A program made the position numbers and the translations under genes. From contig CAVQVT010000013.1 in the NCBI GenBank assembly GCA_963717255.1, positions 96,760 to 160,759 on the forward strand: a DNA stretch of 64,000 nucleotides, in the 5' to 3' direction. Source of the DNA: an uncultured Chloroflexia bacterium. GTDB lineage: Bacteria; Chloroflexota; Limnocylindria; Limnocylindrales; CSP1-4. How positions within the stretch are numbered: the first letter of the stretch is position 1; each line of letters opens with the position of its first letter. Of this stretch, positions 3,831 through 28,399 are shown piece by piece. Below the pieces are notes generated by a model. That model did not search any database. It was not told the DNA's origin and saw nothing but the letters and a program-made list of their open reading frames with translations.

Positions 3831-3944
3831 GCCGCGGCCACCGGTCGGTGCCGGCCGGCCACCCGCTCCGGTCCGACGCGACGCGCGAACGGCACGACAC
3901 CCGGCCCTGTGCGGACGCGCCGTGCGCGCCCATCCTCCTGTCGC

Positions 3945-4016
3945 ACGGGAGGCGTCGACGCGCGGCCCCCGAAGCGGCCGCCCGGACCGCGCGAGCCACT
4001 GGCGAGACCGACCCGC
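3945..4016 (+). ncRNA. c-di-GMP-II-like riboswitch (GAG-type pocket), copy 1
   Basis: GGA-GGC-GUC-GA-[GCGCGG...CCGCGC]-GA-GCC-ACU-GGCGA-GACCGACC; kink-turn GA/GA; CGCC/GGCG pseudoknot; ends just upstream of the 4039 start; 24-nt identity with 26498-26521. Confidence 0.72.
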
Positions 4017-4038
4017 GCGGGACCCAGAGGATCCGGTC

Positions 4039-4842
4039 ATGGCGCTGCGCAGGCTTCGCGATCGGGGGCCGGTCGTCGCGGTCCTCGCCTGGATGCTCGG
4101 TCTCCTGGCGGCGGGCTGCGTCGCCGGCGCGACCTTCACGCCCCCACCCACGGTGGCACCGTCGAGCGTCGCGGTCGCCTCCAGCGTACCCGCCGACGGC
4201 CCGCCGTCGCTGTCCACCGCGGCCCCGACGACGTCGACCCCGACACCGCTCGAGCCGACTCCTGTGCCGCAGCCCTCGTGCTGGTGCCCGTGCGCCAGCG
4301 CGTCGGCCGCCTACCCGGGGGTCGACATCGCGCGTGTCACGCTTGAGGGCGGCCCGTTCTTCACCCGCGCGACGAACGACCTCGACATCCGTCGGGGCAG
4401 GGGCCTCGTCAGCCCGGCAGAGTCGGTCGTCGACGGCGTCTTCCTCGACCGCTTCCAGCAGTGGGACGAGGGGGCCGTGTGGTGGGAGACGGCACCCGGC
4501 GCGCCCGTCGATTCGCAGTGGATCCGCATCGCGCTCGACGGTGCCTGGACGCTCGAAGGGGCGATCGTGCAGGCCGACGACAACGACACGTACCGGCTCG
4601 CCTACCGGGACATGGCCACGGGAGACTGGATGACGCTCATCACCGTCCAGCCGGAGTACAGCTTCGGGATGGTCACGCGGCCGGACCAGTACGACGACAC
4701 GGCTCGCCTGGACTTCTATCGCACGGTGACGACCGATGCCCTGCAGTTCGAGGCCTATGAGGGGGATGGGATGTACGCGGTCTCGGAGATCCAGGTCTTC
4801 GGGACGCGCGCGGAGGCGAGCACGCCATCGCCCGCGCCGTGA
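4039..4842 (+). CDS. Lipoprotein with Pro/Thr linker and discoidin/F5-8C-like beta-sandwich domain
   Basis: Lipobox LAAGC; QWIRIALDG, QADDND and YAVSEIQVFG resemble discoidin-type carbohydrate-binding folds. Confidence 0.7.
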   Translation: MALRRLRDRGPVVAVLAWMLGLLAAGCVAGATFTPPPTVAPSSVAVASSVPADGPPSLSTAAPTTSTPTPLEPTPVPQPSCWCPCASASAAYPGVDIARVTLEGGPFFTRATNDLDIRRGRGLVSPAESVVDGVFLDRFQQWDEGAVWWETAPGAPVDSQWIRIALDGAWTLEGAIVQADDNDTYRLAYRDMATGDWMTLITVQPEYSFGMVTRPDQYDDTARLDFYRTVTTDALQFEAYEGDGMYAVSEIQVFGTRAEASTPSPAP

Positions 4843-23055: not shown

Positions 23056-25257
23056 ATGTCCCTGCTCCGTCGCATGGAGAAGCTCCAGCAGGAGGCTGCC
23101 GCGCGCGCGGCCGATGCCAGCGCGGCCGAGACGCCGACTCTGCCGGCCGACACGCTGGCCGGCGATCCGGCGGCGGTCGCCGCTCCGGCGGCGCTGCCAG
23201 CCGACCCGGATGCTGCCGGGCCGGGCGAGTCGGATCCCGCCCCGCGCTCCGCTCTCGCTCCCGCAGCGGCGGATCCCGCACCCGCTCCGGCCGCGCCATC
23301 GCCCCCGAGCGCGGCCGCGGTCATCGCTGCAGCCGCGGCGGCGGCCACCGCCGCCGCGACGGGCGCGCCACCCCCCGCCCCTCCGACCTCTGCCGGGACC
23401 GCGCCGGGCACGCCCGCCGTCCTGCCCGCCGCACCCCAGGCCGCGCGGATGGCGGCCCGATCCGCGGTCCGCGAGGACATGCTCCGCGACGTCCGCATCC
23501 GCCTCCGGACGGAGGCGGCACGCTCGTCGGCATCCCTGGCGGCCGTCGCGGGACCGGACCTCCGCGGTCGCATCGAGGCGATGGTGGACCGGGTCATCGG
23601 CCTCAGCGGGTACGCGGTCACCCGCGACGAGCGGCTCCGCCTGATCGAGGACATGGTCGCCGGGATCCAGGGCTTCGGGCCCATCGAGACGTTCCTGAAG
23701 GACGAGACGGTCACCGAGGTCATGGTCAACGGCCCCGACCAGATCTACATCGAGCGGGCCGGGAAGATCCATCTGACGGACGCCGCCTTCCTCAGCGACG
23801 ACCACGTGCGGCAGATCATCGACCGGATCGTCAGCCCGATCGGCCGGCGGATCGACCAGTCGAGTCCCCGGGTGGACGCCCGCCTACCCGACGGCTCGCG
23901 CGTCAACGTCATCATCGAGCCGCTCTCCCTCGTCGGACCCGTCATCACCATCCGGAAGTTCTCCGCCCACCCGTACACCGTCGACGACCTCGTCCGGTTC
24001 GGGACCGCCACGGCTGAGATGTTCGACTTCCTGCGCGTCTGCGTGGAAGCCCAGTTGAATATCTTCGTGTCCGGCGGGACCGGGTCGGGGAAGACCACGA
24101 CCCTCAACGTGCTCTCATCCTTCATCCCGGAGGATGAGCGGATCGTCACCATCGAGGACGCGGCCGAGCTGCAGCTCCGACAGATGCACGTCGTCACGCT
24201 GGAGAGCCGCCCTCCCAACCTGGAGGGCCTCGGCGAGATCACGATCCGCGACCTCCTGCGCAACGCGCTCCACATGCGCCCGGACCGGATCATCGTGGGC
24301 GAGTGCCGGGCGGGCGAGGCGCTCGACATGATCCAGGCGATGACAGTCGGGCACGAGGGCTCCCTCTCGACCGGCCATGCGAACAGCCCGGCGGACATGC
24401 TCCGGCGCCTCGAGACCATGGTCCTCATGGCGGGGGTGGACCTCCCGCTCCGGTCCATCCGCGAGCAGATCGCCTCCGCGGTCGACGTGATCGTCCACAC
24501 CGCCCGCCTGAAGGACGGCTCCCGGAAGGTCGTCAACATCACCGAGGTGTACGGGATCGAGGACGATCGCATCCTCCTGCAGGACGTCTTCGCCTTCCAA
24601 CAGACCGGCATGCGGGACGGACGGGTCGAGGGCGCGCTCCTGCCGACCGGGATCCGGCCGACCTTCATGGGGAGGTTCAAGGCGAGCGGGATCCAGCTGC
24701 CGCCGGGCGAGTTCGGCATCCCCGCGTTCGACCCATCCCGCCCCGGCCAGGTCCGCGCCGGCAAGTCGCGCTGGGCGAGCGAGGCCGCCACGCAGGACGG
24801 GAAGCCCGCGCCGGTCACCGTCGGGCATGGACGGGTCGCGAAAGCCGGCGGCATGGTCTACGTCTCCGCGATGGGACCGGTCGACCCGGAGACCGGGCAG
24901 CTCGTCGGGGTCGGCGTCCGGGATCAGACCGTCCAGTGCATGCGCAACGTCCAGGCGCGCCTGGAGGCCGAAGGAAGCGGGCTCGACAGGATCGTCTGGG
25001 CGAGCTGGGCGCTGCGCGACCCGTCCGACTTCGACGCGTTCGACGAGGAGTGGGTGCGCTGGTTCCCGGGCGACGCACCCGTCGGCCAGGCGACGCTCAT
25101 GACGCCGGCGCATCGCCGCGCCGGCTTCCGGGTCTCCATCGGCGTCATCGCGCAGGCGGACGCTGATCCGGGCCCGCGGGCGGCCGGGGATCCGGCCCCC
25201 GGCGACGCGCCGGCCGCGAGGACGTCGCACTCGGGGACGCCGCGCCGGAAGCGGTGA
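23056..25257 (+). CDS. cpaF: TadA/CpaF-family secretion ATPase with Ala/Pro-rich N-terminus and C-terminal Rid (YjgF/UK114)-like domain
   Basis: EVMVNGP, VDARLPDGSR, GGTGSGKTT, TIEDAAEL, MRPDRIIVGE; tail MVYVSAMGPVDPETG..QTVQCMRNV..DFDAFDEEW..WF. Confidence 0.88.
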   Translation: MSLLRRMEKLQQEAAARAADASAAETPTLPADTLAGDPAAVAAPAALPADPDAAGPGESDPAPRSALAPAAADPAPAPAAPSPPSAAAVIAAAAAAATAAATGAPPPAPPTSAGTAPGTPAVLPAAPQAARMAARSAVREDMLRDVRIRLRTEAARSSASLAAVAGPDLRGRIEAMVDRVIGLSGYAVTRDERLRLIEDMVAGIQGFGPIETFLKDETVTEVMVNGPDQIYIERAGKIHLTDAAFLSDDHVRQIIDRIVSPIGRRIDQSSPRVDARLPDGSRVNVIIEPLSLVGPVITIRKFSAHPYTVDDLVRFGTATAEMFDFLRVCVEAQLNIFVSGGTGSGKTTTLNVLSSFIPEDERIVTIEDAAELQLRQMHVVTLESRPPNLEGLGEITIRDLLRNALHMRPDRIIVGECRAGEALDMIQAMTVGHEGSLSTGHANSPADMLRRLETMVLMAGVDLPLRSIREQIASAVDVIVHTARLKDGSRKVVNITEVYGIEDDRILLQDVFAFQQTGMRDGRVEGALLPTGIRPTFMGRFKASGIQLPPGEFGIPAFDPSRPGQVRAGKSRWASEAATQDGKPAPVTVGHGRVAKAGGMVYVSAMGPVDPETGQLVGVGVRDQTVQCMRNVQARLEAEGSGLDRIVWASWALRDPSDFDAFDEEWVRWFPGDAPVGQATLMTPAHRRAGFRVSIGVIAQADADPGPRAAGDPAPGDAPAARTSHSGTPRRKR

Positions 25258-25860: not shown

Positions 25861-26265
25861 ATGGCCGCCAAGCCCAGCGCGGGGGGGTTCCGCGCCTTCC
25901 TGACCAAGACGAACGCCCTGGCTCTGGCCGTCGGCGTCATCATCGGCGCCGCCACGGGTGCGCTCGTCAACTCGCTGGTCAACAACATCATCATGCCGCC
26001 CATCGGCTGGGCCCTCGGCGGCATCGACTTCGCGGCCATGAAGATCGTCCTCGGCACGAACGCCAAGGGCGAGGAGGTCGCGATCGCCTACGGCCTCTTC
26101 ATCAACTCGCTCATCTCGTTCGTCATCCTCATGCTGGTGGTGTACCTCCTCGCGATGTGGTTCATCCGCGAGGAGCCTGCCGCCCCCAGCAAGGAGTGCC
26201 CCTTCTGCAAGGAGGCGAACGCCGAGACCGCGACGAAGTGCAAGTTCTGCGCGAGCGCGATCTGA
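25861..26265 (+). CDS. mscL: Large-conductance mechanosensitive channel with C-terminal zinc ribbon
   Basis: FRAFL..N..LAVGVIIG, SLV.NIIMP, YGLFIN; tail CPFC...ATKCKFC. Confidence 0.9.
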   Translation: MAAKPSAGGFRAFLTKTNALALAVGVIIGAATGALVNSLVNNIIMPPIGWALGGIDFAAMKIVLGTNAKGEEVAIAYGLFINSLISFVILMLVVYLLAMWFIREEPAAPSKECPFCKEANAETATKCKFCASAI

Positions 26266-26288
26266 CGGCCTGAGCGCCGGAACCACGA

Positions 26289-26331
26289 CCAGGAGAGGGG
26301 CCCGGCCGAGCTGGGCCCCTCTCCTGGGTTT
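26289..26331 (+). terminator. Intrinsic terminator-like hairpin
   Basis: ccaggagaggggccc...gggcccctctcctgg followed by gttt, just after mscL. Confidence 0.75.
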
Positions 26332-26446
26332 CGCCGGCCCGCTCTCCGGCCGACGCGAGCGGTGGGATCGCGGATCGAGTCCGACGCCGCCGACGTGACG
26401 GATGACACTTGGCGCGGCGCCGCCGACGAGCGCAGCGTGGGCCCGC

Positions 26447-26521
26447 ACGCGGGAGGCGAGGACGCGCGGGCCGGATCCAGGTCGCCGGGCCCGCGCCGAG
26501 CCACTGGCGAGACCGACCCGC
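26447..26521 (+). ncRNA. c-di-GMP-II-like riboswitch (GAG-type pocket), copy 2
   Basis: GGA-GGC-GAG-GA-[GCGCGGGCC...GGCCCGCGC]-C-GA-GCC-ACU-GGCGA-GACCGACC; loop UCGCC pairs with GGCGA; 40 nt upstream of ATG 26561. Confidence 0.8.
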
Positions 26522-26560
26522 CGTCGACGGGCCGCCCGATGATGGGGCGGAGGGGGAGCG

Positions 26561-26782
26561 ATGAACCGGCTGCGCGGCCTCGACCTCGGGGCCATCATCA
26601 TCGGCGTGCTGGTCCTCGGGGTGGGCGCCTACTACGTCCTGGTCAACACGTTCGGCGTGAACCTGCCCGACCTGGACTGGGACAAGATCTGGCCACTCGC
26701 GATCGTGGCCCTCGGCATCGCGATCCTCGCGGGCGCCTTGAGCCGGATGGGCCGCGGCGGACACGGGCCGCAGGGGGTCTGA
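26561..26782 (+). CDS. Small 2-TM membrane protein (LiaI/LiaF-TM-like)
   Basis: GGAG RBS; G.II...G.YY.L.N.FG...WDKIWPL.IV.LGI pattern. Confidence 0.75.
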   Translation: MNRLRGLDLGAIIIGVLVLGVGAYYVLVNTFGVNLPDLDWDKIWPLAIVALGIAILAGALSRMGRGGHGPQGV

Positions 26783-26995
26783 TCGAAGGCGCGTCGATCG
26801 GCCTCCCACCCGAAGCCCCGCCCGTGCCCCGGACGGGGCTTCACCCGATGCGGCCATCGGCCGCCCTGCCACGCCGCACCCTCCCTGCACCACCCCGCTC
26901 TGATGGTCCATCCTTGGGCGCGCCACGCCGCCTCGCGCCCGCCTCCGCGAGCGGGCCGCGCGGCAGCGCGGCCCCGACGTCACGAGGAGGAGCCC

Positions 26996-28399
26996 ATGCC
27001 GAAGGTGGAACGGATCGCCGACATCCTCGCGGGCCGGACGCCGGTCGGCGGGCGTGCCACGGTCCAGGGCTGGGTCCGGACACGCCGTGATTCGAAGGCC
27101 GGCCTCTCGTTCCTCCACGTCAACGACGGCTCCAGCCTGGACAACCTCCAGGTCGTCGCCCCCGAGACGCTCGGCAACTTCGAGGACGAGGTCCTGCACC
27201 TGACGGCCGGCTGCGCCGTCGGCGTCACCGGCACCGTCGCGGCCTCGCAGGGCAAGGGGCAGGCGGTCGAGCTGCTCGCCGAGTCGATCGACGTGGTCGG
27301 CTGGGTGGACGACCCGGAGACCTACCCGATCCAGGCGAAGCGCCACAGCTTCGAGTACCTGCGCGAGGTCGCCCACCTCCGGCCGCGGACGAACACCTTC
27401 GGTGCGGTCGCTCGGGTCCGCCACAGCCTCGCGATGGCGATCCACCGCTATTTCGACGAGCACGGCTTCTACTGGATCCACACCCCGATCCTCACGGCCA
27501 GCGACGCGGAGGGCGCCGGCGAGCTCTTCCGCGTCTCCACGCTCGACCTGGCGAACCTCCCGCGCACCCCCGACGGCGCGGTCGACTACGCGCAGGACTT
27601 CTTCGGGAAGCCCGCCTTCCTCACCGTGTCCGGCCAGCTGAACATCGAGGCGTACTGCCTTGCGCTCACGAACGTCTACACGTTCGGGCCCACCTTCCGG
27701 GCCGAGAACTCGAACACCAGCCGGCACCTCTCCGAGTTCTGGATGGTCGAGCCGGAGATCGCGTTCGCCGACATCCACGACAACGCCGACCTGGCCGAGG
27801 ACCTGCTGCGGCACAGCTTTCGGGCGATCCTGGACGAACGGCCCGAGGACATGGCGTTCTTCGCCGACCGGATCGATCCGGACGCGGTCTCGCGGCTCGA
27901 GGCGCTCACGTCCTCGACCTTCGCACGGATGACCTACACGGAGGCGATCGACGCGCTCGAGCGGGCCGGACGCTCGTGGGAGTTCCCGGTCTCGTGGGGC
28001 GTCGCCCTGCAGGCGGAGCACGAGCGGTACCTCTGCGAGGAGTACGCGAAGCGCCCGGTGGTGGTCGTGGACTACCCGAAGGAGATCAAGGCGTTCTACA
28101 TGCGCCTCAACGACGACGGACGCACCGTCGCCGCGATGGACGTGCTCGCCCCCGGCATCGGCGAGATCGTGGGCGGCAGCCAGCGCGAGGAGCGCCTGGA
28201 CGTGCTCGACGCGCGCATCCGCGAGACGGGCCTCGACCCGGACGTCTACTGGTGGTACCGCGACCTGCGCCGCTACGGCACCGTGCCGCACGCGGGGTTC
28301 GGGCTCGGATTCGACCGTTCGGTCGCGTACGCCACGGGCATGGCGAACATCCGTGACGTCATCCCGTTCCCGCGGACGCCCGCCAGTGCGGACTTCTAG
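26996..28399 (+). CDS. asnS: Asparagine--tRNA ligase
   Basis: [61 protein letters not shown]. Confidence 0.97.

Follow-up and report, generated by a model that had tools for sequence, protein, structure and literature searches.

A c-di-GMP-II-GAG leader ahead of a 73-aa membrane protein gene is one of about 20 such leaders in a Chloroflexota genome

Background

In a stretch of 64,000 nucleotides from an uncultured Chloroflexia bacterium (hereafter the window, whose positions are used throughout unless a contig is named), the sequence ahead of an open reading frame (ORF) for a 73-aa protein resembles a riboswitch. This raises the question of which RNA it is, what it would sense and how it would act on the gene that follows. 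The assembly of the organism itself (the own genome; positions in it carry the prefix G000) comprises 2.9 Mb in 16 contigs at a G+C content of 73% and is 81% complete. The answer that we favour, with moderate confidence, is that the element is an RF03169 leader of a short transcript for the 73-aa protein: a small-molecule aptamer that would act on translation, that probably binds something other than plain c-di-GMP, and that is one of about 20 such leaders of envelope genes.

Results and discussion

Identity and structure of the aptamer

A search of the window against Rfam (cmscan) yields two matches, each of which covers the whole RF03169 (c-di-GMP-II-GAG) model. The copy under study occupies positions 26443-26527 of the forward strand (63.7 bits, E 2.4e-10, model positions 1-86 of 86; the gathering score of the family is 40 bits) and the other lies on the same strand at 3939-4022 (62.4 bits). 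The element is a genuine member of an already catalogued Rfam family, and an earlier note on this DNA, made from the letters alone, had assigned it correctly. On the other models of clan CL00127 the same stretch scores 59.4 bits (RF03170, c-di-GMP-II-GCG) and 31.9 bits (RF01786, the canonical c-di-GMP-II class), which leaves RF03169 as the best model with a small margin of 4.3 bits over RF03170. The locus shares with RF03169 the helices, the kink-turn motif, the pseudoknot, the G-A-G triplet and the position in a 5' leader, and nothing excludes membership; its local feature is a promoter that abuts the aptamer.

All elements can be read from the sequence, and the P2, bulge, GA/GA kink-turn, 9-bp P3, 5-bp pseudoknot and tail of the earlier description are found where they had been placed. 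Inner P1 is formed by GCGGG (26449-53) and CCCGC (26517-21) and P2 by GGC (26455-57) and GCC (26500-02). A GAG bulge (26458-60) follows, and then a kink-turn-like motif, judged from the sequence only, with GA (26461-62) opposite GA (26498-99). P3 pairs GCGCGGGCC (26464-72) with GGCCCGCGC (26488-96) over 9 bp, the pseudoknot pairs UCGCC (26482-86) with GGCGA (26506-10) over 5 bp, and the junction triplet G-A-G (26509-11) runs into the tail GACCGACCC (26511-19).

The helices are borne out by comparison with other copies. In the 17 copies of the own genome the named structure pairs in 90.6% of the cells, against 30-41% when the partners are slid by 1-3 columns, and two-sided changes occur in four pairs. 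The alignment used for covariation contains 97 copies (these 17 plus 80 from relatives). Here the P1 column pair 6/89 reads GC in 68 copies, AU in 10 and GU in 4, and the P3 pair 21/64 reads GC in 63, GU in 8 and AU in 7.

C.A oppositions recur inside the helices at two places, and both hold standard pairs in other copies: P3 pair 28/58 (C.A 43, UA 32, CG 8, UG 4, GC 3 and GU 2 of the 97) and the end of the pseudoknot, where G at position 68 faces C in 14 of 14 copies, a loop U faces A68 in 13 of 13 and the other 68 are C.A. The copy at 26443-26527 has G-C at the former and U-A at the latter, and because it carries the paired form at both it had looked the cleaner of the two copies in the window. 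This description holds for P3 and the pseudoknot, but not for the poor outer P1, in which 4 of 11 pairs of the model are non-standard. Folding of single sequences is uninformative at the 81% G+C of this region: neither the aptamer alone (z +0.43) nor the whole leader (z -0.12) folds better than shuffled sequences.

Ligand pocket and signalling enzymes

In the canonical pocket of 3Q3Z, G-alpha is recognized by A69 through three hydrogen bonds and G-beta by G73 together with the ribose of A70; A61 forms the ceiling, with the A14-U60 pair to the side (PMC13715770). We mapped the 3Q3Z numbering by spacing onto the Rfam consensus lines, and it fits at all anchors. Under this map, A69 would correspond to the G at 26511: the adenine is absent from the position that reads G-alpha, and the junction reads G-A-G (26509-11) where the canonical copy of the own genome has G67-C68-A69. 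The "GAG" of the family name would then be the triplet that reads G-C-A in the canonical class. Among the 97 copies the triplet is GAG in 79, GGG in 13, GAA in 4 and CGG in 1, which by the same spacing map gives G at position 69 in 93 of them, and the equivalents of A61, A70 and G73 are present in 96, 87 and 92. Compared with RF01786 (3Q3Z; PMC13715770), the fold is therefore the same and these three residues are kept, whereas C68-A69 has become A68-G69 and the sequence of the pseudoknot has changed with compensation. The change of A69 to G is, again by spacing, common to RF03169 and RF03170, which differ at the middle position of the triplet (A here rather than C, and G in 13 of the 97 copies).

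The own genome also contains a single canonical c-di-GMP-II riboswitch, outside the window at G000:C7:242018-242101 on the reverse strand (locus L020, 1100-1700; 55.9 bits on RF01786 for 242025-242094, the gathering score being 53.5 bits). It has a near-consensus promoter (TTGACC-N17-TATAGT). Behind it come a terminator-like hairpin, which overlaps with the 3' strand of the aptamer, a 29-aa ORF and a gene for a 410-aa membrane protein that combines an HD_5 domain (125 bits) with a GYP motif. Riboswitch and HD-GYP phosphodiesterase gene plausibly form a c-di-GMP feedback loop. The two kinds of leader are thus arranged differently: the canonical copy is joined to its HD-GYP gene through a terminator-like hairpin, whereas the GAG copy adjoins the ribosome-binding site.

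The c-di-GMP-II-GAG family was reportedly defined by Weinberg et al. in PNAS in 2017 and is not known to have a validated ligand. A ligand for the natural GAG variant was not found in the literature searched, where the family name was met only in lists of models. Because the A69 equivalent is a G, and because a canonical copy is kept in the same genome, the ligand of the GAG variant is probably something other than plain c-di-GMP; the changed G-alpha reader next to a coexisting canonical copy suggests, as far as can be read from the sequences, that the ligand or at least the response is not the same. The cyclic-dinucleotide signal supposed in the earlier note is a candidate at most, as the copy scores 31.9 bits on the canonical model and differs from it at a position that reads the ligand.

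As to the enzymes that could supply a signal, we found 9 GGDEF, 2 EAL and 1 DAC domains in the own genome, and neither a SMODS cyclase nor a ydaO-type c-di-AMP riboswitch in this 81% complete assembly. Ser/Thr at one GGDEF position, which we take to be the Hypr signature, occurs in none of the 9 GGDEF domains, two paralogues having Asn there. Two near-identical GGDEF domains (G000:C5:207259-207726 and G000:C4:43897-44364) keep the GGDEF motif intact and deviate in the residues of the substrate site, which reads VNS..LYQGGN against ND..GH..GD in the other seven.

An adenine-containing messenger such as c-di-AMP or 3',3'-cGAMP is chemically plausible for the GAG switches, since G73 is kept, a DAC domain is present and no ydaO-type riboswitch was found. 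A precedent for c-di-GMP aptamers with a changed pocket is given by the c-AMP-GMP (3',3'-cGAMP) riboswitches. According to PMC7266159, these are variants of the c-di-GMP-I class in which a small pocket change alters the cyclic dinucleotide that is sensed, and they control other genes. They belong to a different aptamer class (GEMM-I), and in contrast to those systems no cGAMP synthase signature was found in the 81% complete genome studied here.

The best surviving alternative, to which we assign a clearly lower yet appreciable probability, is that the same RNA in the same placement still senses c-di-GMP, with another affinity or other kinetics, such that envelope and HD-GYP genes respond at different levels. 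Conservation of the fold and of most pocket positions (the A61, A70 and G73 equivalents above) speaks for it, but G replaces A69 in 93 of 97 copies, and in the canonical pocket it is A69 that binds G-alpha through three hydrogen bonds (PMC13715770). The presence of 9 GGDEF and 2 EAL domains and the failure to find a SMODS cyclase or Ser/Thr at the presumed Hypr position also speak for it; against this, the stretch fails the canonical model (31.9 against 53.5 bits) and a canonical copy is retained alongside it. There is also a coincidence at the level of families: GGDEF domains are found in all 24 genomes of the same family, 20 of which have the aptamer, and both are missing from all 16 genomes of the sister family. 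Such co-occurrence is weak evidence, as the sister-family genomes measure 1.0-1.4 Mb and may lack many things. Within the family, GGDEF co-occurrence fails as a discriminator, four aptamer-free genomes having 9-18 GGDEF matches. On balance we prefer a ligand other than plain c-di-GMP.

Promoter, linker and mode of control

Upstream of the aptamer lie a gene with a DUF4332 domain and mscL (PF01741, 102 bits), and downstream of the 73-aa ORF follows an asparaginyl-tRNA-synthetase-type gene. The MscL ORF (25861-26265, forward strand) ends in CPFCKEANAETATKCKFC, a C-terminal tail resembling a small zinc ribbon. Further upstream, a 733-aa ORF (23056-25257, forward strand) combines a T2SSE type II/IV secretion ATPase domain (215 bits) with a C-terminal Ribonuc_L-PSP domain (RidA-like, 50.7 bits). 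Behind mscL, a terminator-like hairpin at 26289-26333 of the forward strand has an 18-bp stem (26289-26306 with 26310-26327) followed by GUUUCG. It is very stable (-43.4 kcal/mol for 26289-26327, z -7.0, none of 200 shuffles as good). A pattern scan calls no terminator anywhere in 26150-27050, and this hairpin escapes it because its U tail is too short. The earlier view that the leader is insulated by the mscL terminator is borne out as regards mscL and the strong hairpin; the insulation itself would depend on a hairpin with a weak U tail.

A promoter-like pair is seen at 26409-26438 on the forward strand (TTGGCG at 26409-14, an 18-nt spacer and CAGCGT at 26433-38) and ends 10 nt before inner P1. 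The -10-like hexamers that had been pointed out ahead of the two copies, CAGCGT here and CATCCT at 3931-36, are both confirmed. A strict sigma-70 scan of the locus (26150-27050) finds nothing. With a looser pattern (a TTG/TGG/CTGG-type hexamer, N16-19 and [C/T/G]AnnnT), 50 of 96 copies have such a pair with its end 7-12 nt ahead of inner P1, where shuffled upstream sequence would give 1.8. This placement suggests a transcription start near 26445-47, in which case the outer half of the P1 of the RF03169 model would probably not be part of the RNA.

A conserved block, GTCCGCGACGAC..TCCGGCnCTGG, stands about 45-70 nt upstream of many copies in the genus, immediately ahead of the first promoter-like hexamer and overlapping it. 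Examples are found at G000:C9:20688, C9:21729, C9:26220 and C6:278674, and a degenerate form at 26385-26414 of the window. The spacer between the block and the second hexamer is not conserved. A loose version of the pattern has 68 matches in the own genome, 8 of which precede aptamers; in its tight form one other match without an aptamer was seen by eye (G000:C10:93696, own genome). The block may be the site of a common transcription factor.

The linker between aptamer and start codon measures 33 nt (26528-26560, forward strand). It contains a hairpin (CCGCCC 26532-37 with GGGCGG 26545-50) that in the centroid fold is no better than shuffles (z 0.02), and a purine-rich ribosome-binding site, GGAGGGGGAG, at 26549-58. 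When the aptamer is enforced in constraint folding, the ribosome-binding region is opened in 5 of 15 own-genome copies, closed in none and unchanged in 10; two of the 17 copies had to be dropped because gaps unbalanced the constraint. Duplexes between aptamer and ribosome-binding region (RNAduplex) are no stronger than those of shuffled sequences (-18.4 against -19.0 kcal/mol, sd 3.9, n 80). The search thus yielded no convincing pairing that hides the ribosome-binding site: the duplexes equal the shuffles and constraint folding shows a weak trend.

Linkers are enriched in 5-mers complementary to parts of the aptamer when compared with shuffles that kept the mononucleotide content only: 18 of 80 contain a complement of GGGAC, at the top of the 3' strand of P3 (1.9 expected), and 14 of 80 a complement of GACGC (2.7 expected). 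This excess is due to a motif, GCGUCCC, that occurs in about 40% of the linkers and is absent from the copy at 26443-26527. In the form GCGUCCC(R)GG it stands directly before the ribosome-binding site (for example at G000:C3:280739 and C6:282222) and is complementary to CCGGGAC at the top of the 3' strand of P3, where it could possibly form a helix that competes with the aptamer. We do not claim a switching mechanism from it, as copies in which GGGAC is changed show no clear compensation and the copy studied here lacks the motif.

That no convincing pairing was found which hides the ribosome-binding site would suit a conserved structured leader that works without a small-molecule ligand, by binding a protein or through RNA stability. 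The lack, to our knowledge, of a ligand for the GAG variant and the block GTCCGCGACGAC..TCCGGCnCTGG upstream of many copies, which would imply that transcriptional control is common to the genes too, fit such a leader as well. We nevertheless consider it improbable, since conservation in the RNA is highest at the junction nucleotides, which form the lining of the ligand pocket in the parent class, and its architecture is that of a solved ligand-binding aptamer.

With a small-molecule aptamer retained as the preferred reading, the question becomes which step it controls. No intrinsic terminator lies between aptamer and start codon, given the 33-nt linker and a linker hairpin without a U tract. 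The earlier remark that no terminator follows the aptamer agrees with the scan of 26150-27050, in which none was called, and fits translational control. As the linker offers neither room nor a signal for a terminator, control is probably translational. Regulation of transcription elongation instead, by attenuation or Rho, could appeal to the canonical copy of the own genome, whose terminator-like hairpin competes with the 3' strand of the aptamer, and to the 6-bp GC hairpin in the linker (26532-50). It appears even less likely than a leader that binds a protein, considering that the linker hairpin lacks a U tract, that no terminator was called and that in 83 of 89 copies at most 44 nt separate the aptamer from the start codon, so that a terminator would hardly fit in. 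As for the direction of translational control, there are modest odds on an "on" rather than an "off" switch, by analogy with the canonical copy, where the 3' strand of the aptamer competes with the terminator-like hairpin, and from the constraint folding, in which the ribosome-binding region was opened in 5 of 15 copies and closed in none.

Genome-wide distribution and the genes served

The two copies in the window belong to a much larger set. In the own genome, RF03169 has at least 22 matches at E<=0.001 and at least 19 over its cut-off, among the 150 of about 6,300 first-look candidates that were scored. A profile built from 17 copies (nhmmer) gives 23 own-genome matches at E<1e-5, including three partial ones that are additional to the covariance-model set. 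Some own-genome copies are truncated or orphan. One, at G000:C13:53497-53564 (reverse strand, model positions 10-77), is without outer P1; downstream of it there is no nearby gene, and it points towards the 3' end of a convergent one. Two more, at G000:C6:280351-280412 and G000:C6:188682-188737 (both reverse strand; 280351-280404 and 188682-188729 in the RF03169 search), are without the 3' junction and P1 strand, and each is followed by an ORF with a ribosome-binding site.

All 17 full-length own copies are followed, 7-108 nt downstream, by an ORF on the same strand with a GC3 of at least 0.84. When copies from relatives are included, a ribosome-binding site with an open frame follows on the same strand in 89 of 97, at a median distance of 19 nt. 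The earlier note had proposed a genome-wide RNA regulon of small envelope proteins and had added that copies lying regardless of gene orientation would point to a mobile repeat. A regulon is supported by the matches over the cut-off and by the same-strand gene behind each of the 17 copies, and the repeat is contradicted by the same 17 of 17 and 89 of 97. A dispersed repeat without regulatory role, which the many copies and the few truncated or orphan ones (G000:C13:53497-53564 and the two C6 copies without a 3' part) might suggest, is hardly credible in view of the fixed orientation and distance to the start codon, the covarying helices and the lack of conservation in the spacers between conserved blocks, and is refuted by placement and covariation as far as sequence can do so.

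The proteins are mostly envelope proteins, as had been supposed: 65 of the 84 downstream products long enough to judge (own and related copies) start with a hydrophobic segment and 10 of the 84 have a lipobox-like motif. That they are small does not hold in general, sizes in the own genome ranging from 73 to 599 aa. Of 19 own-genome products scanned against Pfam, two are clear membrane-anchored SAM methyltransferases and one gives a borderline methyltransferase match; others are an alpha/beta hydrolase, an ATC_hydrolase-domain protein, an ABC ATPase and an SCO4226-like protein, and several are lipoprotein-like without a family. The latter description fits the 267-aa ORF (4039-4842, forward strand) that starts 16 nt after the first copy in the window: it has a lipoprotein-type signal (LLAAGC) and matches no family in Pfam or NCBIfam.

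The 73-aa ORF (26561-26782, forward strand; GC3 0.97) starts directly behind the 33-nt linker and encodes a LiaI/LiaF-like protein with two membrane helices. Its description as a membrane microprotein is confirmed by a match of residues 12-56 to PF18917 (LiaI-LiaF-like_TM1, 31.1 bits against a cut-off of 27); NCBIfam gives no match. Homologues occur in 12 of the 15 related genomes searched, among them two close orthologues, with 70% and 69% identity, each from a different genome within the genus. The aptamer is found upstream of the 70% orthologue only and is absent from the 69% orthologue and from the more distant homologues scanned. A stable association between aptamer and 73-aa gene was accordingly rejected as not general among orthologues, and the presence of the aptamer before only one of two close orthologues suggests that leaders are gained and lost gene by gene. 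The 70% orthologue, in a genome of the same genus (locus L024, 1374-1805), is preceded by its aptamer at a distance of 42 nt, and 2 nt behind its stop codon another aptamer begins, each of the consecutive genes there having its own leader.

Among relatives, RF03169 matches occur in 20 of 24 genomes of the same family, with up to 36 per genome, and in none of 16 genomes of the sister family (1.0-1.4 Mb). An exact core 24-mer is found mostly in assemblies labelled Chloroflexota or Ca. Limnocylindria. Within the family RF03169, this lineage is thus characterized by some 20 copies per genome and up to 36 in a relative.

Conclusions

The c-di-GMP-II-GAG leaders of this genome, about 20 in number, precede genes for membrane and exported proteins, and the idea of a regulon is right in outline. 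In the mechanism that we propose for the copy at 26443-26527, a promoter directly before the aptamer would start the RNA at about 26445-47, with the aptamer at its very 5' end, and the aptamer would fold into P1, P2, the kink-turn, P3 and the pseudoknot, as indicated by the fit to the model and by covariation. As the family suggests, the junction would bind a small molecule, which is probably a second messenger of nucleotide type but not plain c-di-GMP. Binding would fix P1 and the 3' strand of the junction and so alter the accessibility of the ribosome-binding site, which lies 22-31 nt downstream; this would control translation and, on weaker grounds, may switch the gene on rather than off. 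Some 20 such leaders would jointly govern membrane-anchored and exported proteins.

Taken alone, the element at 26443-26527 adds a further member to an RNA family that is already catalogued. The genome around it offers a clean natural comparison, with one canonical copy beside about 20 variant copies, and the genes behind the variants form a large and coherent set, which encodes methyltransferases and hydrolases anchored in the membrane, lipoproteins and, beside mscL, a LiaI-like protein. Candidate ligands could be chosen with the help of this set, and it could furnish short, well-behaved RNAs for binding tests. We tentatively suggest, as a possibility somewhat short of an even chance, that the lineage reads two RNA-sensed signals on one scaffold, with one canonical switch for an HD-GYP gene and, per genome, 20-36 GAG switches that would sense another nucleotide messenger for envelope make-up. 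If this is true, a second nucleotide signal, sensed by the GAG switches, would set the make-up of the cell envelope.
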